Source: Candidatus Niyogibacteria bacterium (GTDB lineage: Bacteria; Patescibacteriota; Minisyncoccia; HO2-45-28). From it: 40,027 nt of DNA. The stretch covers positions 1-40,027 of the forward strand of contig JACOVJ010000054.1 in assembly GCA_016177385.1 (NCBI GenBank), read 5' to 3'. Within the stretch, counting starts at the first letter, position 1; the number at the start of each line of letters is the position of its first letter. The notes beneath the pieces were generated by a model, which made no database searches, was not told the DNA's origin, and saw only the letters and a program-made list of their open reading frames with translations. Shown here in pieces: positions 246 through 40,027 of the stretch. The position numbers and the translations under genes were made by a program.

Positions 246-449
246 ATGCTTCCACGACTTCCTCACAAAACATTTTTCACGGTCGTCATCGGCATTTTTA
301 CCGCGATCGCGATCTTGCACGGGCTTCGGGTATTTTATCAATGGCCAGCGGTTATCGGCGGATACGAGGTCCCGATGTGGCTCTCGTATGTCGCGGTCGC
401 GGTCGCGGCGTATCTGGCCTATCAGGCATCCCAGATCGCAAAGCACTAA
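246..449 (+). CDS. Small hypothetical membrane protein (two predicted TM helices)
   Basis: In-frame part of ORF 180..449. ATG at 246 lies downstream of the -10 box. Hydrophobic segments FFTVVIGIFTAIAIL and WLSYVAVAVAAYLAY. Start uncertain (180 or 207 also possible). Confidence 0.5.
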   Translation: MLPRLPHKTFFTVVIGIFTAIAILHGLRVFYQWPAVIGGYEVPMWLSYVAVAVAAYLAYQASQIAKH

Positions 450-484
450 GGGTTGCCCATATCTCGTTCCTAAGGGCTACCCTT
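448..484. repeat. Degenerate copy of the short GGGGAGTCC-family hairpin
   Basis: AAGGGTTGCCC...GGGCTACCCTT inverted repeat. The 3' half TTCCTAAGGGCTACCCTT matches TTCCTAAGGACTACCCTT at 21357-21374. Confidence 0.45.
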
Positions 485-549
485 GGGCGCTATTGCGCTT
501 CATTCTTATCCATGCTATCGTGATGGCGGATTTTTCGTAGGAGATTTCC

Positions 550-3196: not shown

Positions 3197-3916
3197 ATGT
3201 TCGGACAAGAACTCACGCTGGGAGTCGTCATCGTTGCCGCGCTTCTGGACAGCATCAATCCGTGCGTGCTCGGAGTGTTGATCTTTTTGATCGCGTTCAT
3301 GAGGCGGTTTTTCCGCAATGCACGAAAAATGCTTTTGGGCGGATTATTGTACACGGCTGTTGTTTATCTCACGTATTTGGCGCTTGGACTCGGGATCTTG
3401 CAGGCGACGCTGTCCATCGGTATTGCGACCGGCGTCTATTGGGCCGCCGCGCTCATCGCTATTGTGGCGGGACTTCTTGAGATCAAGGATTATTTTTGGT
3501 ACGGGAAAGGATTTTCGTTGCAGATGATCCCGGGAGCATCCGAACGCATCAGGCGGTATACGGCATGGATCGAGAGTTTGGAGGGGCGGCATCCGGTCGT
3601 GCTTTATGGCGTCACGGCGGCTTTAGGCGTTTTTGTCGTGCTGGTGGAGCTTCCGTGCACGGGCGCGCCGTATCTCGTGATCTTGGGGCTTTTGGCAAAA
3701 GGCGCGTATGCCTCGGCGGTCCCGCTTCTTCTTTTCTACAATTTCATTTTCATTCTGCCGCTTCTGGTCATTCTGGCGCTCGCGTATTTCGGGGTCGCAT
3801 CCGAACGGCTGGAGCGCTGGCGCAGCCAGCACCGCGAGTGGATGCGGCTTGCGGTCGGTATTTTTCTCCTCTGCCTCGGCTTTTACATGATCTATTCCCT
3901 CAACCCCATCTTTTAA
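3197..3916 (+). CDS. CcdA/DsbD-type thiol-disulfide transporter membrane protein
   Basis: Six or more TM segments with conserved Cys in INPC and ELPCTGAPY, as in the cytochrome c biogenesis CcdA/DsbD TM family. Confidence 0.8.
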   Translation: MFGQELTLGVVIVAALLDSINPCVLGVLIFLIAFMRRFFRNARKMLLGGLLYTAVVYLTYLALGLGILQATLSIGIATGVYWAAALIAIVAGLLEIKDYFWYGKGFSLQMIPGASERIRRYTAWIESLEGRHPVVLYGVTAALGVFVVLVELPCTGAPYLVILGLLAKGAYASAVPLLLFYNFIFILPLLVILALAYFGVASERLERWRSQHREWMRLAVGIFLLCLGFYMIYSLNPIF

Positions 3917-3928
3917 CCCCCTTTAGAA

Positions 3929-4002
3929 CCCCGAGGGGAGTCCTTTGGGTGCATAAGCTGTGGATAAGTGCTAGTTATCCACACAAAGGACTCCCCTCGG
4001 GG
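3929..4002. repeat. 74-nt palindromic repeat, long form, copy 1 (two consensus DnaA boxes)
   Basis: Perfect 19-bp arms CCCCGAGGGGAGTCCTTTG (3929-3947) / CAAAGGACTCCCCTCGGGG (3984-4002). Inner TGTGGATAA (3959-3967) and TTATCCACA (3975-3983). Confidence 0.9.
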
Positions 4003-4009
4003 ACTTTTT

Positions 4010-4432
4010 ATGACACCGCACGCGATTCTTTTTACACTCTCGGCCGTCGGTATTTCGGAGGCGGCGTATCTGATCCGTATGCGCCGCACGGCGCAGGCGC
4101 CGGTCTGTCCCATCGGCGAGAATTGCACAACGGTTCTTTCATCGAAGTACAATAGGATTTTCGGCGTTGTTCACAACGATGTCGCGGGACTCATTTCGTA
4201 TATTTTTATCGCATTCGCGGCGGCGTTTTTGGTCAATGGCGTGGAACCGGTCATCTGGTGGAGCCGCATGGTTCAGGTGTTGGTCGCATCGGGCGCGGTA
4301 TTTTCGCTCATTCTTTTATATCTGCAGTGGCGCGTCATCCGCGCGTGGTGCTTTTGGTGCGTGATGTCCGCATTCACGCTTTTCGGGATGCTCGCGGTCA
4401 TTCTGACGCAGGACCTTTTATCCATTTTATGA
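4010..4432 (+). CDS. VKOR family protein, paralogue 3
   Basis: Loop Cys pair CPIGENC and TM CFWC. ATG 4010 lies 8 nt after the repeat; the upstream part of ORF 3968.. is repeat-encoded. Confidence 0.8.
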   Translation: MTPHAILFTLSAVGISEAAYLIRMRRTAQAPVCPIGENCTTVLSSKYNRIFGVVHNDVAGLISYIFIAFAAAFLVNGVEPVIWWSRMVQVLVASGAVFSLILLYLQWRVIRAWCFWCVMSAFTLFGMLAVILTQDLLSIL

Positions 4433-5507: not shown

Positions 5508-6638
5508 ATGAATAGTAAAAAAGTCAATAATCGCATCATCGCGCACTTAGACCTCGACGCCTTTTTTGCGGCCGTCGAGGAGCGCGACCATCCGTGGCTT
5601 CAGGGTAAGCCGCTCGTGGTGGGCGCGGACCCGAACGGCGGGTGCGGGAGGGGTGTCGTTTCGACGGCGAGTTATGCCGCGCGCGCCTATGGTATCCGTT
5701 CGGCGATGCCGATTTCGAAGGCGTGGCAATTGTCCGAGGCGGCGCGCCGCGCCGGCAAAGAGCCCGCGACCTTTTTACTCGGCAACCACCATCGGTACGC
5801 CGAGGTTTCCGGCGCAGTAATGGAAATTGTTCGACACCGAGTGTCTAACATAGGGGCAACCGAGCAGAGTGGAATTGACGAGATTTACTGCGATTTAAGT
5901 TTTACGGAGTCGTTCGAAAACGCCGAGGTATTTGTTCGTAAAATAAAAAATGAAATACGGGAACGCGAATTTTTGACGATATCGGCGGGCATCGGGCCGA
6001 ATAAATTGATTGCGAAGATCGCATCGGAACGCCAAAAACCGGACGGGTTGACGCTCGTGCGTCCTGAACAAGTTCAGGATTTTTTGGATCCGCTTCCGGC
6101 GCGCGTCATCCCCGGCATCGGGCCGAAAACGGACGGGGCGCTCGCGAAAAATGGCGTCAAAACCATCCGCGATCTGCGCGCATTTAGTCGCGAAAAACTT
6201 ATCGAGCGGTTCGGCAAATGGGGGAGTGATTTATACAAAAAAGCGCGAGGTGAGGACGATTCTCCGGTGGAGGAATCGGATGAAATAAAATCGGTGGGTG
6301 AGCAGGAAACGTTTGAAACCGATACGCTCGAATTAGCGTTCGTTTGCGAACGGTTGAATGCATTATGCTCGGATGTGTTCCGGCGATTCTTGCGCGATGG
6401 ATTTAAAACATTCCGCACTATAGCGCTGACCGTGCGATTCGCGGATTTCCAAACGCAAAGCCGTGCGCATTCATTGAAAACGCCTGCTCGAACCGAATCC
6501 GTTTTACGGTTCGAGGCGCTCAAATCGCTCCTGCCGTTTTTTGATAAACGCGAAAATCCGCAGAGCAAAAAGCTCCGCCTGATCGGCGTGCGGGTGGAGA
6601 AGCTGTCTAAAACTTTTGACGGCCGTTCAAAGTTTTAG
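5508..6638 (+). CDS. dinB: DNA polymerase IV (Y-family)
   Basis: IAHLDLDAFFAAVEERD, SGIDEIYCDL, GIGPNKLIAKIAS, IPGIGPKT; full length, 376 aa. Confidence 0.95.
   Translation: MNSKKVNNRIIAHLDLDAFFAAVEERDHPWLQGKPLVVGADPNGGCGRGVVSTASYAARAYGIRSAMPISKAWQLSEAARRAGKEPATFLLGNHHRYAEVSGAVMEIVRHRVSNIGATEQSGIDEIYCDLSFTESFENAEVFVRKIKNEIREREFLTISAGIGPNKLIAKIASERQKPDGLTLVRPEQVQDFLDPLPARVIPGIGPKTDGALAKNGVKTIRDLRAFSREKLIERFGKWGSDLYKKARGEDDSPVEESDEIKSVGEQETFETDTLELAFVCERLNALCSDVFRRFLRDGFKTFRTIALTVRFADFQTQSRAHSLKTPARTESVLRFEALKSLLPFFDKRENPQSKKLRLIGVRVEKLSKTFDGRSKF
5829..5849. repeat. 21-nt hairpin GTTCGACAC-CGA-GTGTCTAAC inside dinB
   Basis: Near-identical copy at 32532-32552 (GTTAGACAC-CGA-GTGTCGAAC). Confidence 0.7.
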
Positions 6639-6643
6639 ACAGC
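6602..6643. repeat. 42-nt near-perfect palindrome covering the dinB stop codon
   Basis: 15-bp arms GCTGTCTAAAACTTT / AAAGTTTTAGACAGC around the palindromic loop TGACGGCCGTTC. Confidence 0.85.
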
Positions 6644-6692: not shown

Positions 6693-6720
6693 TTGATTTT
6701 TTCTTGATTTGTGCTATAGT
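6693..6720 (+). promoter_or_regulatory. Promoter TTGATT-N16-TATAGT with TGn extension
   Basis: TTGATT 6693-6698, TGCTATAGT 6712-6720. Confidence 0.5.
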
Positions 6721-6766
6721 ATTCCGAACGCTCAGTTTGTACATTCACACAAAAAACAGAGGAATT

Positions 6767-7267
6767 ATGAGCGAAGAAACCGTGTCGCGGTTTGCATATT
6801 TTTTTCCTTTTCATGGAATGCCGCAAAAACTCAAAACAGTTTCGACGGGCAGCGGGACGCTATCATTGCGTCTCCCTGATGAGGTTGATCCACGCATCTT
6901 GGCCGTCGATCCGAAAGACCGGCGCGTCCTCATTGTTTTCGACGGCGTGATTCCTTCTGGTGGTCTGCCGCAAGCGTGCTCCATTTTGGATTCCGCTCCG
7001 TGCCGCGTTGTGCGTATTCAGACGGAACATGCGTATAAACAGCGTCATCCTGTTGAAGAGCCGTTGACGTATTCTGTACGGAAAATTAATGGCCGAATGT
7101 ACGCTGAACAGGAAATCGCTCGTCATATTCTGCTTTCGCCGCACAAAGAGTCCTGTCTTCGCCGATATCACAACAAAACCCTTCGCCCGCATTATGTTTG
7201 CTTGGAAATTTTGAATGGCAAAAAGGACGGATTGATCGTGCGACTGAGGCGCGTTTCAACGTATTAG
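6767..7267 (+). CDS. Hypothetical protein (orphan, 166 aa)
   Basis: ATG 6767 preceded by AGAGGAA. Has its own promoter and terminator. No family recognised. Confidence 0.65.
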   Translation: MSEETVSRFAYFFPFHGMPQKLKTVSTGSGTLSLRLPDEVDPRILAVDPKDRRVLIVFDGVIPSGGLPQACSILDSAPCRVVRIQTEHAYKQRHPVEEPLTYSVRKINGRMYAEQEIARHILLSPHKESCLRRYHNKTLRPHYVCLEILNGKKDGLIVRLRRVSTY

Positions 7268-7302: not shown

Positions 7303-7363
7303 ATTGGTGTTCGGGTGGAACATCTGTCTAAAAGAATGAACGGTTGTACAAAAATTTAGATAG
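7303..7363 (+). repeat. Third diverged copy of the dinB 3' end plus hairpin (IGVRVEHLSKRMNGCTKI*)
   Basis: ATTGGTGTTCGGGTGGAACATCTGTCTAAAAG...TTTAGATAG aligns with 6582-6640. Confidence 0.65.
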
Positions 7364-7401: not shown

Positions 7402-7692
7402 TCAGCGGGCGCGGATGACGACAAAATATCCGACATTCTCACCATAGGCCCCGGCGCCGTTGCCGGTCATCGCCTCGATCTCGGTTCCCGGATTTTGTTT
7501 TTTGAATTGGCTGAGCGCATTTCCGAATTTGGCTTCGTTGCAGGGGAAATATAGAACGCCGTATTCGTAATTGAGGGGCAAACAGCCCGCCTTTCCGATG
7601 TTTTCGGATTCGCTGGCCCGATTCGGATTGCATGCAGTCAGGAAAAAGAGAGCAATGAACATCAGCGCCGCTGTCATGATAGATCGCAACAT
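7402..7692 (-). CDS. Small lipoprotein, hypothetical
   Basis: Signal peptide ending in the lipobox FLTAC; AAAGGAG RBS. Confidence 0.75.
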   Translation of the reverse strand: MLRSIMTAALMFIALFFLTACNPNRASESENIGKAGCLPLNYEYGVLYFPCNEAKFGNALSQFKKQNPGTEIEAMTGNGAGAYGENVGYFVVIRAR

Positions 7693-7808: not shown

Positions 7809-8759
7809 ATGACCCCGCGGACATTCCGGAAAACGATCTACGATTTTTACCGTTCGTCGGGGCGCGACTTGCCGTGGCGTAAAACAAAAGACCCATATTA
7901 CATCCTCATTTCCGAAATGATGCTCCAGCAAACGCAGGCAGAGAGCGTGATTCCGAAATACGAAGCATTCATTCGCGCATTTCCGGATTTTCGCGCGCTT
8001 GCAACGGCGCCGCTCCGCAACATTTTAGCGCTCTGGAAGGGATTGGGCTATAACCGTCGCGCGTTATATCTAAAAAAAGCGGCCGAAATCGTAATACGAG
8101 AACATGGCGGCGCATTGCCGCGTGATGTCGAAAAACTCTCGGCGTTGCCCGGCATCGGCCGCGCGACCGCATCGGCAGTTGCGGCGTACGCGTTCAACCG
8201 GCCCGTTGTTTTCATCGAAACCAATATCCGGCGCACATTCATCCATCATTTTTTTAAAACCCGCCTCAACGAACAGGATGAGCGCATACCGCGAAAAAGG
8301 GCTTTCGGAGCGCGACGGCGCGAGAACGAGCCGATTTTTCAGCAGAAAAATACGGCGCACCTTTTTCGCGGTATGCGCGAAGACGGCTTTGAGGCGGGTT
8401 CTAGGACCAGTGCAGCAATCGATGATCGCGAACTCCTTCCGCTCGTCGCACGCATGCTCGACCGCCGGAATCCGCGGCGATGGTATAACGCACTGATGGA
8501 TTACGGCGCAATGCTCAAAAAACAGTATCCGAATCCGAACCGACGGAGCCGGCATTATACAAAACAAAAACCGTTCGAGGGGTCGGACCGTGAGATTCGC
8601 GGGAAAATCCTTGAAATGCTTTTGAAAAGACCGCGTCAGACCGAATGGGCGCTTGCGAGAGCCGCAGCGGTCGAACCCGAGCGGGTCCGACAATGCCTAA
8701 AACGGCTTAAAAACGAAGGAATCCTGCGTTATTCACACCCCTATTTTGCGATCGCATAA
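7809..8759 (+). CDS. HhH-GPD DNA glycosylase (MutY/Nth-like) lacking the Fe-S cysteine cluster
   Basis: LPWRKTKDPYYILISEMMLQQTQ, LPGIGRATASAV. The C-terminal region has only one Cys (no 4Fe-4S loop). ATG 7809 within ORF 7713.. Confidence 0.85.
   Translation: MTPRTFRKTIYDFYRSSGRDLPWRKTKDPYYILISEMMLQQTQAESVIPKYEAFIRAFPDFRALATAPLRNILALWKGLGYNRRALYLKKAAEIVIREHGGALPRDVEKLSALPGIGRATASAVAAYAFNRPVVFIETNIRRTFIHHFFKTRLNEQDERIPRKRAFGARRRENEPIFQQKNTAHLFRGMREDGFEAGSRTSAAIDDRELLPLVARMLDRRNPRRWYNALMDYGAMLKKQYPNPNRRSRHYTKQKPFEGSDREIRGKILEMLLKRPRQTEWALARAAAVEPERVRQCLKRLKNEGILRYSHPYFAIA
8258..8400. repeat. About 143-nt compound palindrome translated in frame within the glycosylase gene
   Basis: Outer arms AACCCGCCTCAA (8258-8269) / TTGAGGCGGGTT (8389-8400). 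Inner perfect 19-bp arms 8282-8300 / 8360-8378. Confidence 0.8.
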
Positions 8760-9456: not shown

Positions 9457-10653
9457 GTGTCGAAGCGAGTTTCCAAACGCACGATCGTCATCGGTGCCGT
9501 TGTTTTGGTCGCCGCTGTTTTTGTTTTGGATGTTTCGGGGTCGCTCGAGCGTTATTTGGCATTGGTATTCCCGCCGTCGGCGTTGAGCCCCGCTTATTTG
9601 AAGGGAAAATATGACCAAGGTCAGCCGATCCGGTTGCTGATCGTGCCGGGGCATGAAGTCGGGGTCGGGGGTGCGTTTTACCGCAATTTCTGGGAGCGCG
9701 ACCTGAATATCGAGCTTTCAGAAAAATTGGTGCAATTGTTTGGGCGCGATCCGCATTTTCAGGTAAGCGTTACGCAGAATTGGGCGGGATACTATCCGGA
9801 ATTCGCGGAGTATTTTGAAAATAATCGCGCATCCATCCGGGCATTTTATACCGGCCTGCGCGATGTCATGCGAAGCTTGGTAGGTTCGGGTGTTGTACAG
9901 AAAAAAATGGACGGCGTACGGCATAACGCCGCAAAACCGGAACTCGGCATGCGGCTCTACGGCGTGAACAAATGGGCAAAGGATAACGCCATCGATATCG
10001 TCCTGCATTTGCATTTCAACGACTATCCGGGGCGCCCCCGGAATGGTCCGGGCGAATACGCGGGATTCGCAATCTACATTCCGGAACGCCAATTCCCAAA
10101 TTTTGAGGCGTCGCACGACATTGCGCGCGCGGTCCTGCGGGAATTGGCGCGATATTTCCCGATATCAAGCTACCCGCCGGAAAGCGCGGGAATCGTGGAA
10201 GATCAGGATTTGATCGCCATTGGCGCGAATGCATCGCTTGAGGCTGCGGGCATCCTCATCGAATACGGTTACATCTACGAGCCGCAATTCGCCAACCTCG
10301 CCATCCGGTCCGCCGCGCTTTCGGAATTGGCTCAAGAAACGTATAACGGATTCAAGCGGTATTTTGAAGGCGCGAATACGCCGGTCCGGGAAACGGTGAT
10401 CGTGCCCCACATGTGGGCGCACGAGATCGGCGAAGGCGCGAAAAATCAGCCGGATATTTTTGCTTTGCAGATCGCGTTAACGCGCGACGAACTCTATCCG
10501 CCGGCCGGTAAAAGTCGCGATGATTGTCCGCCGTCAGGTAATTTCGGCCCATGCACGCGCGAAGCGCTGCGCGCTTTTCAAACGCGGTATGGCCTTTCCG
10601 CAAACGGCAAATTAGATCTCAATACGATCGCAAAACTCAATCAAATTTATTAG
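9457..10653 (+). CDS. N-acetylmuramoyl-L-alanine amidase-like protein with C-terminal peptidoglycan-binding domain
   Basis: LLIVPGHE, VLHLHFNDYPG, IEYGYIYE (Amidase_3-like). C-terminal ALQIAL...REALRAFQTRYGLSANGKLD (PG_binding_1-like). GTG start. Confidence 0.7.
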   Translation: MSKRVSKRTIVIGAVVLVAAVFVLDVSGSLERYLALVFPPSALSPAYLKGKYDQGQPIRLLIVPGHEVGVGGAFYRNFWERDLNIELSEKLVQLFGRDPHFQVSVTQNWAGYYPEFAEYFENNRASIRAFYTGLRDVMRSLVGSGVVQKKMDGVRHNAAKPELGMRLYGVNKWAKDNAIDIVLHLHFNDYPGRPRNGPGEYAGFAIYIPERQFPNFEASHDIARAVLRELARYFPISSYPPESAGIVEDQDLIAIGANASLEAAGILIEYGYIYEPQFANLAIRSAALSELAQETYNGFKRYFEGANTPVRETVIVPHMWAHEIGEGAKNQPDIFALQIALTRDELYPPAGKSRDDCPPSGNFGPCTREALRAFQTRYGLSANGKLDLNTIAKLNQIY

Positions 10654-10662
10654 TCACCCCGA

Positions 10663-10736
10663 CCCCGAGGGGAGTCCTAGGGGTGGATAACTAGCACTTA
10701 TACACAGCTTATGCACCCAAAGGACTCCCCTCGGGG
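10663..10736. repeat. 74-nt palindromic repeat, long form, copy 2 (inverted relative to copy 1)
   Basis: CCCCGAGGGGAGTCCT...AAAGGACTCCCCTCGGGG. Boxes GGTGGATAA and TTATACACA each match 8/9. Confidence 0.9.
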
Positions 10737-10741
10737 ATTCT

Positions 10742-11221
10742 ATGATCGCGATTTTGGCAGATATACGAAGTTCGCATAATACCGGGTCCCTATTCCGCAC
10801 GGCGGATGCCGCGGGTGTGGAAAAATTGTATTTGGCGGGTGTGACATCCGGACCGAAGGACCGATACGGCCGGCCCAACGAAAAATTATTGAAAGTCGCA
10901 TTGGGTGCCGAAAAAGCGGTCGCGTGGGAACATATAAGATCCGCCGCACGGCTCGTGGACATACTCAAAAAAGACGGATTCGATATCTGGGCATTGGAAC
11001 AGGCACGGAGCGCGACATCGCTTTTCGATGCACGCCCAAAAAATTTTTCGAAACTCGCGCTCGTGGTCGGCAACGAAATCAAAGGACTTTCCCGCGCTCT
11101 TTTGAAGCGCGCCGATCGCGTCGTTTACGTCCCGATGTATGGGAAAAAGGAATCGCTCAATGTCGCGGTCGCATTCGGCATCGCCGTTTATCAATTCCGC
11201 GCTACAATAGGAAAATTATGA
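10742..11221 (+). CDS. SpoU/TrmH-family RNA 2'-O-methyltransferase
   Basis: HNTGSLFRTADAAGV, LVVGNEIKGLS, ESLNVAVAFGIAVY. Confidence 0.9.
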   Translation: MIAILADIRSSHNTGSLFRTADAAGVEKLYLAGVTSGPKDRYGRPNEKLLKVALGAEKAVAWEHIRSAARLVDILKKDGFDIWALEQARSATSLFDARPKNFSKLALVVGNEIKGLSRALLKRADRVVYVPMYGKKESLNVAVAFGIAVYQFRATIGKL

Positions 11222-13163: not shown

Positions 13164-13331
13164 GAATCCCAAACGTTGTGGAGGATGCGTCGGGCTGGGC
13201 GGAAGCATGCTTCCGCCGGCCGAAGGCCGTGGCTTTGCGCCGCAGAAGCGCAAAGTGGGAACAATGGTTTTGCCCGCCAAAGGCGGGCGTCTAGAAATAG
13301 AGGCGAGCATCCGGAATAACGTTTGGGATTC
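13164..13331 (+). other. 168-nt multi-hairpin element E1 closed by GAATCCCAAACGTT / AACGTTTGGGATTC
   Basis: Perfect 14-bp closing stem (13164-13177 / 13318-13331). Inner hairpins at 13198-13217, 13218-13228, 13233-13255 and 13272-13288. Confidence 0.75.
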
Positions 13332-15739: not shown

Positions 15740-15902
15740 TAGAATCCATCTCAAAATGGCTTTGAAGGCGAAATCGCGCGAATTTCGTCGCGAGACCGCC
15801 GCCGCAGGGGCGATTCGTACTGGAAGTACGATGAGTCCCGAGAAGGCGGCCGAACAGAAATTCGCCGATTGGAGCCCAAATGCATTTTTGAGATGGATTC
15901 TA
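15740..15902 (+). other. 163-nt element E2 closed by TAGAATCCATCTCAAAA / TTTTGAGATGGATTCTA
   Basis: Perfect 17-bp closing stem (15740-15756 / 15886-15902). Its last 3 nt are the stop codon of the convergent - strand gene. Confidence 0.75.
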
Positions 15903-16799
15903 GAGCGCGTTCAAAATCTTCAGTTTTTCCGTGAGCTCCTCGTTGCACTCCGAAACCGTGGCCGCGATCATTTCCTCGAGATGGGGGATTTTTTGCTTCA
16001 AAAATGTATCGAGATCGTCGTCGCGGTTTCTATGGTCGAGTAATTCAAAAAGAGGTTCTTTATCGGGCGCGCAAAGTCCATTGAGTATTCGCCAGCCGAC
16101 CTGTCCATGAACAAGGGAATAAGCGGCATCGAACAGGCGGTCGAGGTCGGCGGGCGCGATCACTTCCAGCCCCCGTTCCTTAAAGATATTCGAGGTCGTT
16201 TCTGCGGTCGTTTTGTTGCTTGAGTTTTTAAGTGCTCTTTGCAAGCGCGCATTATTTTTTACTGCGCTGAATTTTTCCAGCCACCAATGGATCGGCGGCG
16301 TCGTCTCGTGAATGCCTGAAGCGATCAGGCGCTCGATCGCGGCAGAGGCCACGGTTTCCATTCGGTGCCGGCCTGCCGAAGACGCATTTCCGCCGGAAAG
16401 CGCCGCGAGCGTGTGATTCAAAACAAAAAACGCAGTATTTTCGAGGACGCCGGCCAAAAGAAGGGCGGCCGCCGAGGTTTTGTGCCGCGGCGGCTGGCGG
16501 TACTGCCAGCGCTCGGCTTTTTTCAGGTACCACGATTCCCGGGGTCCGGCATGCTTCATTTCGTAGGCGTAAAAAAGCGCGGTCTCGTTTTCGGCAAGCA
16601 AAATCAGAGCGTGCGCCGGAGAAAAATTTTCTCCGAGTTTTTGTTTGGCCCACGAACCGGCGAACTCGTGATAAGCGGCCCGCGCCAGACGCGCTTCCCG
16701 CTCCTGGGCGTTTTTCATCCACGCTTCGAGACCCGGTTCCTTGGCCCCCCATTTCCTGTTTTGCCATCCTTCAAATGCCGCAAAGAGCGCGCGTTCCAT
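15900..16799 (-). CDS. Hypothetical protein (about 299 aa)
   Basis: ORF 15900..16967 trimmed to the Met at 16799 (MERALFAAFEGW), because the upstream part overlaps a better + strand small ORF. No family recognised. Confidence 0.6.
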   Translation of the reverse strand: MERALFAAFEGWQNRKWGAKEPGLEAWMKNAQEREARLARAAYHEFAGSWAKQKLGENFSPAHALILLAENETALFYAYEMKHAGPRESWYLKKAERWQYRQPPRHKTSAAALLLAGVLENTAFFVLNHTLAALSGGNASSAGRHRMETVASAAIERLIASGIHETTPPIHWWLEKFSAVKNNARLQRALKNSSNKTTAETTSNIFKERGLEVIAPADLDRLFDAAYSLVHGQVGWRILNGLCAPDKEPLFELLDHRNRDDDLDTFLKQKIPHLEEMIAATVSECNEELTEKLKILNAL

Positions 16800-16860
16800 T
16801 CTTTTATGGTAGCGCACTTGACATGTTGCGTTTTCCACATAAAACGCAATACTATGGGAT

Positions 16861-17019
16861 ATGTGGCAATTATGGACCGCGGGGACTCTGGGCATCCTGA
16901 TGGCGCTGGTCCCGTTTTTGGGCTTTACTCCCGACCTTAAGGACGTCATTACGGTCGCGTTCGGCATTGCGATCGCCGTTTTCGTGTTTTGGGCGTTGGG
17001 AGTGAAAAAGCCGGCGTAA
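16861..17019 (+). CDS. Candidate 52-aa two-TM membrane protein (below the ORF-track cutoff)
   Basis: MWQLWTAGTLGILMALVPFLGFTPDLKDVITVAFGIAIAVFVFWALGVKKPA. TACTAT lies 5 nt upstream of the ATG. Confidence 0.4.
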   Translation: MWQLWTAGTLGILMALVPFLGFTPDLKDVITVAFGIAIAVFVFWALGVKKPA

Positions 17020-17035: not shown

Positions 17036-18238
17036 ATGCCGAAACGCTATTGCATCATTGGCGGCGGGATCGCGGGGATCACGGCTGCCGAAACCATCCG
17101 CGCGCACGACGGCGAAGGGGATATTCTGGTGATCTCGGCGGAGCCGCATCCGCTCTATTCGCGGGTTTCGCTTCCGGCGTATGTTTCGGGAGAATTGGAA
17201 CGCGAGCGGGTGATGATGCGCACGCTCCGCGATTATGCAGAGCGAAACATCCGGCTGTTTCCCTCCGAACGCGTGATCGAGGTTCGACCTCGAATTCGAG
17301 GGCGAACCTCGGGAGGAGAAGTAAAGACCGCATCCGGGAAGACATTTGAATATGATGCCTTACTTATCGCAACAGGCGGCCGTCCCGTGGAATGGCCGCA
17401 CGACGAGGTTGTATCGGAACGCATATTCCGTCTGCATACGCTCGACGACGCCCTACGCCTGCGCGAATTTTTTAACAGGCATCCGGCCCGCTTCGCCAGC
17501 CTCGCGTCTAGGCGGGCCGGAACTCCCGCTTCGCTCGCGAAGCGAGGCGAGTCAGCGAGGCGGTCGGTCGGTCGGGTCATTGTTGCCGGCGGGGGATTTA
17601 TCGCTTTAGAGCTTGCCGAGATTTTCCGGACAAAAAAATTCGACGTCACGTTTCTGGTGCGCGGCCCGCAATTTTGGAGCGGCAAATGGGTCGACCCCGC
17701 CGACCACGACCGACTCACCGATTTGTGGAAGAAAAACGGGGTGCGGGCGATTTTCGGTGATGCGGTCCGCGAAATGGAAGAGAATAATGGAGCGGTGCGG
17801 ATCCGCACGACCGCAGGGCGCGACATTGTCGCAGATTGCGTTGCGATCGCGATCGGGATCGAATGCGAGCCGGATTTTGTTCCGCGAAAAATTCTTGGAA
17901 GCCTCGCTTCCAAGAACTTGGAAGCGAGGCTTCCAAACGGAGTTGTGGTAAACAAATACTTGGAAACCGAGTTTCCAAACGTATGGGCCGCCGGGGATGC
18001 GATGCGGTGCGCGGCGGACGGCGAACCTCAGGGGTCGCAGAATTGGTCAAGCGCGGTTCTGTCCGGACAGGCCGCGGGAATGAATATGATGGGCGAGTAC
18101 GGTAGGGGAACGCGCAAAGTATTTCGTTTGCCGCCCCGGTATTCCGTCGGCCACTTCGGCGCTGTGCTAAAATGGGAAAATGGCCGCTCTTTTTTTAAAA
18201 GCAACCCCGACCCCGAGGGGAGTCCTCGGGGTGGATAA
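17036..18238 (+). CDS. FAD-dependent pyridine nucleotide-disulfide oxidoreductase
   Basis: YCIIGGGIAGITAAE, LLIATGGRP, VIVAGGGFIALELAE, VWAAGD. The last 11 codons and the stop lie inside repeat copy 3. Confidence 0.85.
   Translation: MPKRYCIIGGGIAGITAAETIRAHDGEGDILVISAEPHPLYSRVSLPAYVSGELERERVMMRTLRDYAERNIRLFPSERVIEVRPRIRGRTSGGEVKTASGKTFEYDALLIATGGRPVEWPHDEVVSERIFRLHTLDDALRLREFFNRHPARFASLASRRAGTPASLAKRGESARRSVGRVIVAGGGFIALELAEIFRTKKFDVTFLVRGPQFWSGKWVDPADHDRLTDLWKKNGVRAIFGDAVREMEENNGAVRIRTTAGRDIVADCVAIAIGIECEPDFVPRKILGSLASKNLEARLPNGVVVNKYLETEFPNVWAAGDAMRCAADGEPQGSQNWSSAVLSGQAAGMNMMGEYGRGTRKVFRLPPRYSVGHFGAVLKWENGRSFFKSNPDPEGSPRGG
17483..17564. repeat. GC-rich hairpin cluster translated in frame (PARFASLASRRAGTPASLAKRGESARR)
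   Basis: 9-bp stem 17483-17491 / 17512-17520, and hairpin CGCTTCG-CTCG-CGAAGCG at 17527-17544. Shares CCCGCTTCGCC and GCGAGGCGG with the terminator at 4844-4873. Confidence 0.65.
17894..17937. repeat. Two tandem 21-nt hairpins that are reverse complements of each other, in frame
   Basis: CTTGGAAGC-CTC-GCTTCCAAG, then AA, then CTTGGAAGC-GAG-GCTTCCAA; encodes LGSLASKNLEARLP. Confidence 0.8.
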
Positions 18239-18284
18239 CTCATACTTATCCACAGTTTATGCACCCAAAGGACTCCCCTCGGGG
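18211..18284. repeat. 74-nt palindromic repeat, long form, copy 3
   Basis: CCCCGAGGGGAGTCCTCGGGGTGGATAA...TTATCCACAG...AAAGGACTCCCCTCGGGG; perfect TTATCCACA at 18246-18254. Confidence 0.9.
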
Positions 18285-21334: not shown

Positions 21335-21375
21335 CAAAGGGGAGTCCTTTTCTGATTCCTAAGGACTACCCTTTG
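21335..21375. repeat. Short GGGGAGTCC-family hairpin
   Basis: CAAAGGGGAGTCCTT - TTCTGATTCCT - AAGGACTACCCTTTG (one mismatch in the arms). Confidence 0.85.
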
Positions 21376-21410
21376 TGAAAATGCGGATAACTCGACTTGA
21401 CAAGGACATA

Positions 21411-21438
21411 TTGACATGCTCCTGTTTTGTGCTATAAT
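21411..21438 (+). promoter_or_regulatory. Consensus sigma70-type promoter TTGACA-N16-TATAAT
   Basis: TTGACA 21411-21416, TATAAT 21433-21438 preceded by TGTGC; a second TTGACA at 21397-21402. Confidence 0.7.
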
Positions 21439-21471: not shown

Positions 21472-21515
21472 CCCCGAGGGGAGTCCTAGGGGTGGATAAA
21501 CTGTGGATAAGTAAG
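21472..21515. repeat. Half copy of the long repeat with two tandem DnaA-box-like sites
   Basis: CCCCGAGGGGAGTCCTAGGGGTGGATAAACTGTGGATAAG. No right arm. Lies in the leader of the 21542 gene. Confidence 0.8.
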
Positions 21516-22423: not shown

Positions 22424-22463
22424 CCCCCCACCCGTTTTTAACGGGTGGGGGGATTTTTTTTTC
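22424..22463 (+). terminator. Strong intrinsic terminator
   Basis: 11-bp stem CCCCCCACCCG / CGGGTGGGGGG, 7-nt loop, nine T. Confidence 0.85.
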
Positions 22464-22507
22464 ACAAAGGGGAGTCCTTTTCTGGTTCTTAAGGACTCCC
22501 CTTTGTG
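22463..22507. repeat. Short GGGGAGTCC-family hairpin
   Basis: Perfect 17-bp arms CACAAAGGGGAGTCCTT / AAGGACTCCCCTTTGTG, loop TTCTGGTTCTT. Confidence 0.9.
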
Positions 22508-22515
22508 AAACTCTT

Positions 22516-22544
22516 AGGAATCAGAAAAGGACTACCCTCGGGGG
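22516..22544. repeat. Chimeric partial repeat (short-form loop plus long-form arm)
   Basis: AGGAATCAGAA-AAGGACTACCCTCGGGG; a perfect TGTGGATAA follows at 22562-22570. Confidence 0.7.
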
Positions 22545-22577
22545 CCGCTCTTTGTTCCGTGTGTGGATAACTTGCAG

Positions 22578-22605
22578 TTTGCACGAACCTGTCGCGTGGT
22601 AAAAT
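22578..22605 (+). promoter_or_regulatory. Promoter TTTGCA-N16-TGgTAAAAT, 6 nt upstream of ATG 22612
   Basis: Extended -10 at 22597-22605. Confidence 0.5.
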
Positions 22606-25633: not shown

Positions 25634-25653
25634 TACGAGGCTCGGCCTCATAC
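25634..25653. repeat. REP-like hairpin A (GAGGC-TCG-GCCTC), overlapping the transposase stop
   Basis: TACGAGGCTCGGCCTCATAC. Confidence 0.85.
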
Positions 25654-26343
25654 ATTGTTATCTAGAGCCACTTCGTCCATTTCTTCTGTATTAGTTTTCC
25701 AATCCCGGATCCATTCTTTAGTTTTTTGTTTATAGTTTTGTTTGCCATCAAAATAATCTAAAAGAAAATCTCGCGTCGTTATCGACGGGAAGTTTTTCTT
25801 TCCCATATAATCCGGAAAACTGCTCCATCGATAGTTTTCTAAAAATTGCATCCGCACACTTAATGAGGCCGAGCCTCGTACCCGTACGTTTTGCAGATCA
25901 AGCGGATTCATGTGTATGTAATGGGGAATGTGCATGAGATGCGATTCGCGGTCAATGCGAATCGCCTTGAATTTCCCTTGAAAAAGAGGGCCGACGCGCT
26001 TATATTTTTGATTGAAATACATTACATAACCAGTTCCCAATTTGTGCATAAATCTTGGAACCCCACTCTCATCTTTTGCGCGCACCAACAAGTGAAAGTG
26101 ATTTGGCATCAGCGTAAATATCAAAATATCCACCAATTGTTTCCTTGATGTATGAGGCTCGGCCTCATACGATTTGATGTGGGGCTTGCAATGGGCATCA
26201 AGAGCGGGTGCTTCGTCATTGAATTCAAAAAGATTATGAATAAATCTGTAATAATCTTTTTCATTTGAGAAGATATTTCTCTTCTCAACGCCGCGGTTAT
26301 AAATATGATATATCTCATTTTCCGCAAAGCTTTCTTTTCTCAT
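25648..26343 (-). CDS. Y1 HUH transposase, IS200-like / REP-associated (RAYT-like)
   Basis: YHIYNRG, MPNHFHLLV (HUH), GPLFQGKFKA, HYIHMNP (catalytic Tyr region), ENYRWSS. Confidence 0.9.
   Translation of the reverse strand: MRKESFAENEIYHIYNRGVEKRNIFSNEKDYYRFIHNLFEFNDEAPALDAHCKPHIKSYEAEPHTSRKQLVDILIFTLMPNHFHLLVRAKDESGVPRFMHKLGTGYVMYFNQKYKRVGPLFQGKFKAIRIDRESHLMHIPHYIHMNPLDLQNVRVRGSASLSVRMQFLENYRWSSFPDYMGKKNFPSITTRDFLLDYFDGKQNYKQKTKEWIRDWKTNTEEMDEVALDNNV
25863..25880. repeat. REP-like hairpin B (GAGGC-CGA-GCCTC), inside the CDS
   Basis: ATGAGGCCGAGCCTCGTA; encodes RGSAS. Confidence 0.85.
26151..26172. repeat. REP-like hairpin C (GAGGC-TCG-GCCTC), inside the CDS
   Basis: TATGAGGCTCGGCCTCATACGA; encodes SYEAEPHT. 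Confidence 0.85.
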
Positions 26344-38911: not shown

Positions 38912-40027
38912 TCACGCCGCGGATTCCTGTTCCGCCGGCAGTTGTTTCTCGAGCTTCCACCACTCGCGCCAGAGCCATTCGGCGAACTTCGTCACGGTCC
39001 TCCAGATCGCCATCCGCTGGATGTGCATGTCAGAGTACCGTTTTTTGCCGTCCACGACCTCGGGCGGATGTTTTGCGCGGAACTTCTTTTTGTACTCGAT
39101 GAGGCGCCCGCCCCATTCTGATTTCGGGCGCTTGAGGAACTGGTCGCCCAAAAGATACAGAGCTTGCCGCGCATCCGGACTCCAGTTGGCGACCTCGCCG
39201 CCGCGCCGGCGCGCGAAACGTCCGTCATCGAGCAGATGAACGCCGCAAAACGCTTTGAATTTTGCGGCCGACGCAAATCGCCGAATGTCGCCCACGGCTG
39301 CGATGATGCGCGCGGAAATGGCGGGTCCGCACCCCACGACCTCCGAAAGGATGTCGCGGTATACGGGAAGCGCCTCCGCCGCGTTTTCGAGTTCGTGATT
39401 CCGCGCGCGTTCCTCCTTGGCAAGCGCCGAGAGGATGAGGTCGCTCGCTTCGCGTTCTTCGAAAAGGTCTTCGATCGCCCCTTCCGGATACAGCCCATCC
39501 TCGGAACGGAAGATCTCGCCGATAAGGCGCTGGCGCAGGCGCTGTTCGCAGGCGATCCGCGCTTTCATGGCGTCGGTGCGCAGATTGAGCGCGCCGCGCA
39601 ATTGCATCAGGTCGCGGTCGCGGCGGGTGACGGGATAAAAATCATCCCGATGGTCGCGCACGAGCAGGGCGAGCGTTTCCGCGTCGGCATCCACGGAACG
39701 CCCGTCGCCGAACTCCGCTCGCCGGTTTTTGAGGATGAACGGCGGGATGCGGAACACGGCGGCATGGATCGCCTCGGTACGCTTCGACAGGGCAAAGGCG
39801 AGGTTGTCGCCCGAGCCGCCAAGAATCATACCGATGACGTCGCCCGTTCGGAAACCGTCGTAGGACGCGGGGACCATCGTTTCGGTTTCGGTCTCGGAGC
39901 CGCGTTTTTTGCGCGTTTTGATGTGGCGCGCGAAGATGACCGCGAGATCATCGCTCGGTTCGGCGACGCGGAAGCGCGTCGGAAACCGGCCGAGGACGAA
40001 ATCGAGTTCATCTTCTTCGGTCTCGAG
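38912..40027 (-). CDS. IS110-family-like recombinase (Transposase_20-type C-terminal domain); reading frame open to the window edge
   Basis: VVGCGPAISARIIAAVGDIRRFASAAKFKAFCGV...RQALYLLGDQ. The first in-frame Met is at 39877, but there is no in-frame stop between 39878 and 40027. Confidence 0.6.
   Translation of the reverse strand, partial: LETEEDELDFVLGRFPTRFRVAEPSDDLAVIFARHIKTRKKRGSETETETMVPASYDGFRTGDVIGMILGGSGDNLAFALSKRTEAIHAAVFRIPPFILKNRRAEFGDGRSVDADAETLALLVRDHRDDFYPVTRRDRDLMQLRGALNLRTDAMKARIACEQRLRQRLIGEIFRSEDGLYPEGAIEDLFEEREASDLILSALAKEERARNHELENAAEALPVYRDILSEVVGCGPAISARIIAAVGDIRRFASAAKFKAFCGVHLLDDGRFARRRGGEVANWSPDARQALYLLGDQFLKRPKSEWGGRLIEYKKKFRAKHPPEVVDGKKRYSDMHIQRMAIWRTVTKFAEWLWREWWKLEKQLPAEQESAA

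Follow-up and report, generated by a model that had tools for sequence, protein, structure and literature searches.

Repetitive extragenic palindromic (REP) elements and clusters of DnaA boxes are the described systems that come closest to the repeat considered here. The signature of a REP system is a Y1/HUH transposase gene, encoding the REP-associated tyrosine transposase (RAYT), flanked by its own hairpin (PMC3333891, PMC2817692). REP units are imperfect palindromes of 20-40 nt, extragenic and present in over 100 copies in each genome. Classical REP units bear a GTAG/CGTC tag (PMC3733652), and REPs are linked to recruitment of integration host factor (IHF) and to mRNA turnover (PMC3479197). 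In the DnaA arrays of Escherichia coli oriC, boxes of the consensus TTATnCACA lie 2-4 bp apart (PMC5742627). The DnaA-box clusters (DBCs) of Bacillus subtilis and chromosomal titration in E. coli serve as models for titration, initiation control and the regulation of neighbouring genes (PMC3245932, PMC12371093). Here we analyse a dispersed 74-nt palindrome, the type-A element, in a window that is the entire 40,027-bp contig of a Candidatus Niyogibacteria metagenome-assembled genome (MAG; Patescibacteria/candidate phyla radiation (CPR); groundwater, uncultured). On balance, and as judged from comparative data, we lean slightly towards a combined functional reading in which the element is a REP pair resembling a bacterial interspersed mosaic element (BIME), with a DnaA-box cluster as its linker.

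The repeat and its copies

Each type-A element consists of two inverted arms enclosing a 36-nt linker with three boxes. An earlier sequence-only reading had listed three full copies and a half copy from 21472. All four were recovered with the same coordinates and sequences, and their spacing to the neighbouring stop and start codons was as it had described.

3929..4002, orientation a: type-A copy 1, arms 3929-3947 and 3984-4002, after an SfLAP-like gene whose stop ends at 3916, before a VKOR gene starting at 4010
3948-3956 (-) TTATGCACC; 3959-3967 (-) TTATCCACA; 3975-3983 (+) TTATCCACA: boxes of copy 1
10663..10736, orientation b: type-A copy 2, arms 10663-10681 and 10718-10736, after an amidase gene whose stop ends at 10653, before a SpoU methylase gene starting at 10742
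10682-10690 (-) TTATCCACC; 10698-10706 (+) TTATACACA; 10709-10717 (+) TTATGCACC: boxes of copy 2
18211..18284, orientation b: type-A copy 3, arms 18211-18229 and 18266-18284, ahead of a DUF4015 gene (start 18296)
18230-18238 (-) TTATCCACC; 18246-18254 (+) TTATCCACA; 18257-18265 (+) TTATGCACC: boxes of copy 3
21472..21510: half copy, arm 21472-21490, then tandem boxes GGTGGATAA-AC-TGTGGATAA (21491-21499, 21502-21510)

The arms are exact over 16 nt, and copies 2 and 3 are both inverted relative to copy 1, where copy 2 alone had been thought to be so. Stop codons end 12 nt ahead of copy 1 and 9 nt ahead of copy 2. In copy 3 the stop codon of the Pyr_redox gene lies inside the element, being the TAA (18236-18238) of the box at 18230-18238. 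Downstream start codons follow the hairpin by 5-11 nt at all three copies. The half copy sits in the 5' untranslated region (UTR) of a gene for a 285-aa protein, between the -10 hexamer (21433-21438) and the Shine-Dalgarno sequence/ATG (21542). The 16-mer arm CCCCGAGGGGAGTCCT has 7 exact matches in the window and 12 with up to 3 mismatches, against 0.2 expected. The core GGAGTCCT occurs exactly 12 times in the 40 kb, with two variant arms besides; all the cores are extragenic except the left arm of copy 3, which overlaps the 3' end of a gene.

In orientation a the linker reads GGTGCATAA-GC-TGTGGATAA-GTGCTAG-TTATCCACA, and in each copy two tandem boxes lie exactly 2 bp apart with one inverted box 7 bp away. 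Only two boxes per element had been noticed before; the third, TTATGCACC, is separated by 2 bp from the middle box in all full copies. The pair described as facing across seven nucleotides is a real inverted pair. However, the perfect form TGTGGATAA-N7-TTATCCACA is confined to copy 1, copies 2 and 3 hold 8/9 variants, and by the usual arrow (5'-TTATCCACA-3') the two boxes stand back-to-back with their TTAT ends facing.

Orthology and age of the copies

Comparison was made with a relative (GCA_016181935.1; loci L097, L104 and L028) that has 84-85% protein identity to the window (two proteins) and nucleotide identities of 0.78/0.82/0.59 by codon position. All three type-A elements occupy the same junctions in the same orientation in this genome (SfLAP-VKOR, amidase-SpoU and Pyr_redox-DUF4015). 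The orthologue of copy 1 (L104 ~7426-7498) is identical at 27/27 box bases, that of copy 2 lies at L097 2355-2435, and that of copy 3 (L097 9893-9993) is expanded to four boxes and reuses the Pyr_redox stop codon. Linker length is 36-42 nt across both genomes. Copy-specific details are common to orthologues, namely TGTGTATAA in copy 2, the AC spacer in copy 3 and the Pyr_redox stop formed from the first-box TAA, and the copies were therefore inherited and not re-inserted. The relative also has the half copy ahead of the 285-aa gene, in the 5' UTR, with the arm and one box conserved, and contains one half copy that the window lacks.

The arms have evolved differently from the linkers. Those in the window are all CCCCGAGGGGAGTCC and those of the relative's full copies all CCCAAAGGGTAGTCC; three arm base pairs have changed on both sides between the genomes, with pairing intact in 6/6 copies. 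Since the arms are uniform per genome while the linkers diverge copy by copy, the arms have been homogenised within each genome. The Pyr_redox and DUF4015 open reading frames (ORFs) of three Niyogibacteria at a greater distance (L100, L102 and L103) overlap without a spacer, and the hairpin at that operon junction is therefore a derived, old insertion.

Neither the arms nor the loop of a second hairpin family (type B, below) were found in the more distant Niyogibacteria L100, L102, L103, L128 and L129. No type-A copy was found in an arm-pair scan of GTDB species-representative contigs, in which many unrelated hairpins share the 10-mer by chance (e.g. terminators in Streptomyces, Kribbella and Woeseiaceae). 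In metagenomes, the arm-pair matches all came from unrelated families of repeats whose arms are similar, and the same scan of viral sequences gave no match. As far as sampled, the type-A elements appear restricted to a Niyogibacteria clade of ~54% GC. Their site-for-site sharing with a diverged relative marks them, at the level of genome comparison, as old chromosomal fixtures. At the edge of locus L104 (1-453) lies an RVT_1 reverse-transcriptase gene, which could belong to a group II intron, a retron or a diversity-generating retroelement; no window counterpart was noted.

The linker as a probable DnaA-box cluster

Perfect TTATCCACA occurs five times in the window (3959, 3975, 18246, 21502, 22562), exactly where it had first been read, against 0.13 expected, and 0/100 shuffles reach five. 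Allowing up to one mismatch gives 19 matches against 4.9 expected (shuffle mean). The claim that all boxes lie in or next to the repeats holds for the five perfect boxes and for five 8/9 matches, but nine further 8/9 matches are scattered elsewhere, somewhat above the shuffle mean of 4.9; two of the scattered boxes (8729 and 16831) are conserved and non-coding. After the arms, GTGGATAA is the top intergenic 8-mer, and the relative conserves most of the boxes that lie within or close to the repeats.

A DBC is recognised by at least three TTATNCACA nine-mers in ~50 bp outside oriC, and each type-A copy holds three boxes within 36 nt. Same-strand box pairs at a start-to-start distance of 11 nt number 4 in the window and 5 in the relative, a count that includes arm-plus-two-box half copies and the four-box copy 3, against 0.075 in shuffles. 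Pairs at other start-to-start distances between 9 and 20 are almost absent. The tandem pairs are exactly 2 bp apart in 9/9 cases, within the 2-4 bp of oriC DnaA arrays. Half copies without a partner arm retain boxes in both genomes. The module TGTGGATAAGTnnnAGTTATCCAC was also found in 19 viral contigs, in several of them within multi-box clusters.

A check proposed with the sequence-only reading, whether the box module is conserved more strongly than the rest of the loop, was run against the relative and came out in favour of the boxes. Boxes 1 and 2 differ from their orthologues at 3/54 positions, all of them at W3, N5 or position 9, compared with 5/14 positions in the central spacer (Fisher p = 0.007; 2 genomes, related copies). 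W3 and N5 are tolerant positions of the DnaA consensus. The third box differs at 6/27 positions; it is identical in the three window copies and in copy 1 of the relative, and copies 2 and 3 of the relative differ at 3/9 each.

Boxes are also found singly, upstream of promoters.

21382..21390 (-): single box TGCGGATAA(CT), 42 nt upstream of TATAAT in a strong promoter (TTGACA 21411-21416, TATAAT 21433-21438)
22562..22570 (-): single perfect box TGTGGATAA(CT), 29 nt upstream of the -10 TAAAAT (22600-22605), gene start 22612

The positions orthologous to the first of these read TGTGGATAACT in L097 and in L098, a third relative. For the second, the distance of 27-29 nt between box and -10 recurs in L097, L099, L028, L100 and L102. 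Single TGTGGATAAC(T/C) boxes stand 27-29 nt upstream of the -10 in six promoters from five Niyogibacteria genomes, and three orthologous promoters have such a box at 40-42 nt. The box forms the loop of a hairpin resembling a terminator in two distant relatives. Taken together, the constraint, the spacing and the promoter boxes point to a protein site at the level of DNA, for which DnaA is the obvious candidate. By comparison, the boxes are predicted to be DnaA sites, and we consider this probable. Of the functions first suggested for the element, that of a DnaA-titrating or DnaA-regulated site thus gains support on comparative grounds (boxes conserved over spacers, 2-bp tandem spacing).

An SPW-family gene (16852-17019, beginning MWQLW, in region 16820-17019) falls below the 80-aa cut-off of the ORF list. 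Its promoter carries TTTTCCACA in the spacer between TTGACA and the -10, conserved in the relative, and in distant Niyogibacteria the gene is preceded by TGTGGATAA in a hairpin loop and then a T-run. Matches to TTTTCCACA at SPW gene starts in distant relatives were rejected as boxes, being the codons ATG-TGG-AAA. At its 5' end the - strand ORF 15900-16967 runs over the SPW gene and its promoter, and the start called for this ORF may therefore lie too far upstream. The box at 8729-8737 (TTATTCACA; TTATGCACA in the relative) lies at the end of an HhH-GPD gene, with the next gene starting ~50 nt further on. Its left flank, TGCG, is also that of the box at 16831, and it may be a further regulatory box. 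In L126, from another Patescibacterium, TGTGGATAACT occurs in a non-coding stretch (2640-2830) with a T-arm-like motif, possibly a structured RNA gene.

Arms as probable REP units of a RAYT-like family

Each arm is itself a mini-palindrome (stem, AGG-GGAGT-CCT, stem) with a 21-nt unit, CCCCGAGG-GGAGT-CCTCGGGG; the corresponding unit of the relative is CCCAAAGG-GTAGT-CCTTTGGG. Patescibacteria hairpins of the pattern xxxAAGGGGAGTCCTTx'x'x' were clearly in excess in the GTDB arm-pair scan. A GTAG/CGTC tag at the foot of the unit was not found, window arms having GGAG and the relative's arms GTAG in the loop. Transposase genes of the RAYT-like kind were located in the window and in three loci from elsewhere.

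25648..26343 (-): RAYT-like Y1/HUH transposase gene, intact, 231 aa, in a low-GC patch (0.46); not part of the element
L065 1813-2520: RAYT-like gene, Paceibacterota; hairpins on both sides of the gene
L092 1377-2045: RAYT-like gene; insertion with a duplicated ~190-aa C-terminal fragment of the adjoining aminopeptidase N gene
L093 7100-7630: RAYT-like gene

The three outside loci had been retrieved by the arm pattern alone and were among those searched by tblastn with the window's transposase as query. RAYT-like genes, 37-38% identical to the window's, were found 32-45 nt from GGGGAGTCCT hairpins in all three. The arm core GGGGAGTCC thus adjoins RAYT-like Y1 transposase genes in three independent loci. 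These RAYT-like proteins (~230 aa) exceed the Pfam Y1_Tnp threshold or match the RAYT model, in the latter case only with scores under its cut-off. No cognate transposase for the GGAGT-type hairpin was seen in the ~82 kb of window and relative. Because a hairpin beside a transposase gene is the REP/RAYT signature, the arms can be read as REPs of a CPR RAYT-like subfamily. The earlier suggestion of a REP-like element is borne out by these loci and by the inverted arms with a linker, which is the BIME layout. The chassis of the 74-nt element is very probably REP/BIME-like.

The window's own transposase is above the Pfam Y1_Tnp threshold, and both the HUH and the YxHxNP motif are present in it; among NCBIfam models it matches the REP-associated tyrosine transposase model best, though at a score under the cut-off set for that model. 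It has >7000 homologues, the named ones mostly from Patescibacteria. Hairpins of 20 nt (TAYGAGGC...GCCTCRTA) lie near 25637, 25865, 26154 and 26371, that is, on both flanks of the gene and twice within the ORF, and have the same build as the arms (stem, AGG, 5-nt loop, CCT, stem) with a different loop. The relative is without the gene and retains one copy of its hairpin. A 59%-identical homologue in L126 has the same layout of two flanking and two internal hairpins with a different hairpin sequence, and cognate hairpins inside the transposase coding sequence look like a family trait. Judged by sequence features, the gene with its hairpins shows that the genome hosts a REP/RAYT-type system. No paper joining RAYT with Patescibacteria was found in the literature searches.

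The arm core GGGGAGTCCT is also that of a second hairpin family, type B, which has the loop AGGAATCAGAAA, in either orientation, with a linker of ~11-13 nt.

446..491: degenerate type-B-like hairpin
21335..21375: type-B hairpin, arm core GGGGAGTCC / GGACTACCC, loop TTTCTGATTCCTA
22463-22507 and 22513-22543: type-B hairpin and half type-B, directly after a canonical terminator and ahead of the box at 22562
33439..33475: type-B hairpin, AAGGGGAGTCCTTAGGAATCAGAAAAGGACTCCCCTT; stem extends further, then a T-run, terminator-like in look

The loop of the hairpin at 21335 is flipped at the orthologous site in L097. Conservation of type B across phyla was considered and rejected, the sole match outside Niyogibacteria being a 9-kb contig, L068, that is possibly mis-binned. 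This contig, binned as Gottesmanbacteria in the same groundwater project, holds two type-B hairpins (30-75 and 435-475), one apparently within a ComF-like ORF. Its GC content is 50% versus the 46 in the isolate name (read as the GC of the MAG), and mis-binning or transfer is possible.

Alternative explanations

The alternative that survives best, although we hold it to be unlikely, is that only the hairpin matters. The element would then be an RNA or DNA stem-loop (an intercistronic attenuator, an mRNA 3'-end protector or REP debris) with the look of boxes as a passenger. It could have arisen as a palindromised 'arm + promoter box' unit, kept by stem pairing and gene conversion and not by DnaA. 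The folding energy of ~-52 kcal/mol per full copy on either strand (z ~-6 to -10) and the compensatory changes in the arms fit this. Copy 1 folds with boxes 1 and 2 as its inner stem, yet box substitutions break this inner pairing and still fit the DnaA consensus (in copy 2, TGTGTATAA opposite TTATCCACC). The third box is bulged in the same fold, though a consensus fold can pair it with box 1, and this box is identical in the three window copies and the relative's copy 1. Arm-plus-box units exist beside promoters and box-less type-B hairpins stand at equivalent positions, as a hairpin-only origin would have it; however, half copies, in which the partner arm is missing, still have two boxes at the 2-bp spacing in both genomes, and the 2-bp spacing rule has no RNA-level explanation.

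A different DNA-binding protein, such as a global transcription factor of the lineage recognising TGTGGATAAC(T), with the repeats as dispersed operator sites, appears improbable. In its favour, promoter boxes share the extended motif TGTGGATAAC(T/C) at fixed distances from the -10 (27-29 and 40-42 nt), as is typical of activators. The core of the box nonetheless equals the near-universal DnaA box, and any bacterial DnaA is expected to bind perfect boxes, given the conservation of domain IV. The 2-bp tandem spacing lies within the 2-4 bp of oriC DnaA arrays, and the tolerated variants (TTATACACA, TTATGCACC and TTTTGCACA) follow the known degeneracy TTWTNCACA (TTATnCACA in PMC5742627).

An efficient intrinsic terminator or a currently active MITE (miniature inverted-repeat transposable element), both of which had been raised earlier, is very improbable. 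The stem is GC-rich and T-runs of 4-5 follow copy 1 (ACTTTTT) and copy 3 (TTTT), but copy 2 and its orthologue have no T-run, canonical terminators exist separately, and the downstream genes are promoterless, conserved and 5-11 nt away, so that readthrough is needed. As for a MITE, terminal inverted repeats are present and one half copy is found in the relative and not in the window. Yet no direct repeat or target-site duplication flanks the three full copies, all of which are orthologous at 59% third-position identity, and only a half copy is polymorphic.

Least probable of all is a single-strand function, in which an extruded hairpin would present a duplex DnaA box for helicase loading or priming like the ABC primosome A-site, or for replication restart: the inverted boxes of copy 1 do form a perfect 9-bp duplex DnaA box at the hairpin tip on either strand, and a single-stranded DNA (ssDNA) hairpin with a DnaA box suffices for DnaA-dependent loading of DnaB in E. 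coli (PMC6127211), but copies 2 and 3 and the relative have an imperfect inner duplex, none can form in half copies, the palindrome permits no strand bias, and nothing in this analysis bears on the helicase loaders of the lineage.

Several narrower assignments were tried and rejected. A promoter within type A was discarded for want of a -10-like hexamer, in either orientation, at the 27-29 nt distance of true box-promoters. An integron attC site was discarded because the arms are without R''/R' core sites (RYYYAAC ... GTTRRRY) and the flanking genes are syntenic housekeeping genes. The small structured RNA of the sequence-only reading found no support, nor did any dedicated structured RNA, as Rfam gave 0 matches at the gathering threshold and the elements are present in both orientations; sub-threshold matches were only to microRNA-precursor models, as with any long hairpin. 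A CRISPR repeat and a known RNA family were likewise rejected for type A. A DNA uptake sequence was set aside because the arm core is found in intergenic hairpins and not in coding DNA (the left arm of copy 3 overlaps a gene 3' end), and a restriction or methylation site (GAGTC) because the relative carries GTAGTC in its place.

A number of points weigh against a REP pair with a DnaA-box-cluster linker. The box preference is assumed from the near-universal consensus and may not be that of the host, whose DnaA and oriC lie outside the data; binding of DnaA by the element is something we infer from sequence comparison. The comparative sample is small and non-independent (2 genomes, 6 related copies), and stem pairing of boxes 1 and 2 or gene conversion of the palindrome could explain part of the box conservation. 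REP pairs of the same core occur without boxes in other Patescibacteria, and in L098 (76%) a type-B hairpin without boxes stands at the Pyr_redox/DUF4015 junction; the DnaA cargo is therefore dispensable there. The window's only RAYT-like gene is flanked by a hairpin other than the GGAGT type. Nor does the box geometry follow that of DARS1 in E. coli (NC_000913.3, MG1655), which reads TTATCCACT-5-TGTGGATAA-3-TGTGTATTA with the CACA ends facing, whereas type A reads TGTGGATAA-7-TTATCCACA-2-TTATGCACC with the TTAT ends facing. Lastly, the copies were counted within the 40-kb window, and an argument from titration depends on the genome-wide number.

Proposed working

If the element is a BIME-like REP pair carrying a DnaA-box cluster, each copy would bind 2-3 DnaA molecules on duplex DNA, cooperatively on the tandem pair, and by virtue of this the dispersed copies would act as a reservoir or titration sites for DnaA. 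A DnaA/DnaA-box complex can block transcribing RNA polymerase, and locally the copies may act as DnaA-dependent roadblocks between flanking genes.

The genes downstream are promoterless and well conserved and start 5-11 nt past the hairpin, so the element must itself be transcribed. Once transcribed, it would fold (~-52 kcal/mol) and bury a weak GGGG/GGGAG ribosome-binding sequence. In E. coli operons, REP/BIME elements damp or couple expression and protect mRNA 3' ends. Here the hairpin is likely to damp or couple expression between the two genes of a junction and to shield the 3' end of the upstream mRNA. At the third junction the upstream ORF ends within the hairpin, which would allow coupling by ribosome unwinding.

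A bolder version goes further: a transposase-associated repeat would have spread a functional DnaA-box cluster chromosome-wide in an ultra-small bacterium, so that a network of hairpins sets the level of free DnaA, controlling initiation mainly by titration, and/or provides ssDNA-hairpin sites for helicase loading or restart. We regard this network as improbable; were it true, replication control would have been built from a mobile-element chassis.

The contig and its other features

The gene content of the window is typical of the group, with a split transketolase, a bacterial-type PGI, DUF5663 and several VKOR/DsbA genes. GC skew is positive across the whole window and nearly every gene is on the + strand, and there is therefore no origin in it; dnaA and dnaN were not found among the window genes either, and oriC inside the window was rejected on these three counts. 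No tRNA genes were found in the window.

Further repeats and hairpins are present. A third hairpin family consists of a 40-nt palindrome, CTGTCTAAAACTTTTGACGGCCGTTCAAAGTTTTAGACAG, at 6603-6642 and 7324-7363, inside 74-nt repeats that bracket a gene at 6704-7267; it is partly conserved in the relative. A perfect 44-nt palindrome (CTTGGAAGCCTCGCTTCCAAGAACTTGGAAGCGAGGCTTCCAAA) at 17894-17937 and a smaller one at 17958-17980 both lie within the Pyr_redox ORF, which is unusual in coding DNA, and the Pyr_redox gene is the least conserved annotated enzyme in the comparison with the relative. The PGI/ROK spacer (13254-13331) has an inverted match to the orthologous spot in the relative, the site of a palindrome there. 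An intergenic inverted-repeat pair is formed by 31293-31326 with 31487-31520, and the nearby 31380-31489 also matches the relative in inverted form.

Towards the end of the contig, a gene for a PaaX/Cas2-like protein (37717-38500 and 37744-38307) has A-rich direct repeats of 25-28 nt (GTAAATAGAGAAGCAGACAAAGAAATCG) around and after it. A CRISPR array was rejected for these repeats because their spacing is incompatible. An IS110-family transposase gene (38912-39877, - strand; DEDD_Tnp_IS110 and Transposase_20) lies at the contig end; REP hairpins are known targets of IS110-type elements (PMC1525189).

Significance

The sequence-only reading could assign the element to no described family. Its chassis does belong to a known kind (REP/BIME), and it is for the DnaA-box cargo that no described case was found, literature searches having returned no equivalent of a REP/BIME repeat with a DnaA-box-cluster linker. 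Should our reading be right, this would be, as far as those searches show, the first dispersed REP/BIME-type repeat with such a linker, the known parallel being the IHF-binding BIME. It would also tie the GGGGAGTCC core, widespread in Patescibacteria, to a large RAYT-like Y1 family (>7000 homologues), and would make REP/RAYT systems common in the reduced genomes of Patescibacteria. Protein molecules are believed to be very few in ultra-small Patescibacteria cells. In a genome of ~1 Mb, dozens of DnaA sites of high affinity would be a strong sink for DnaA, and would offer a testable handle on how ultra-small bacteria balance the initiation of replication against DnaA-dependent transcription. 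With the boxes as mere passengers, the repeat would be an ordinary new REP family in an uncultured lineage, useful for annotation.

Comparison with known systems

The Correia elements of Neisseria and the enterobacterial repetitive intergenic consensus/intergenic repeat unit (ERIC/IRU) sequences are dispersed intergenic palindromes with IHF sites that affect flanking transcription or mRNA processing. They are ~100-150 bp long and MITE-like with TA duplications, and we know of no associated Y1 transposase or DnaA boxes in either.

In the ABC-primosome A-site the hairpin stem is a duplex DnaA box (PMC6127211), and copy 1 forms such a stem on either strand. However, the A-site is a single-strand initiation signal of plasmids and phages with one box, whereas type A is chromosomal and dispersed, with three boxes and a mostly imperfect inner duplex.

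The six DBCs of B. subtilis and datA, DARS1 and DARS2 of E. coli resemble type A in having at least three consensus or near-consensus boxes in intergenic DNA outside oriC. The DARS core has three boxes with one opposite (PMC5742627), as type A does, and in control regions of E. coli the boxes are conserved while the spacers vary (PMC4585315), the same pattern as in type A. DBCs, datA and DARS are unique loci, whereas type A is a multi-copy dispersed repeat within a palindrome.

The closest counterpart in kind is the E. coli BIME, with which type A shares short GC-rich mini-palindromes in inverted pairs, a short linker, and intergenic, gene-end and intra-operon sites. In the BIME/RAYT system a Y1/HUH transposase gene is flanked by the same hairpin (PMC3333891, PMC2817692), and in L065, L092 and L093 a RAYT-like gene adjoins hairpins with the arm core, although the proteins found here are of ~230 aa and fall below the curated RAYT cut-off compared with the E. 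coli RAYT (TnpA-REP). Classical REPs carry the GTAG/CGTC tag at the foot (PMC3733652); type-A arms are without it and have a conserved GG(G/T)AGTCC in the mini-hairpin loop. The host also differs from that of the E. coli BIMEs, being a Patescibacterium with a very small genome in which the copies are old and orthologous. Finally, where the linker of the IHF-binding (RIP/RIB) class of BIME carries an IHF site, that of type A carries a three-box cluster of putative DnaA sites.

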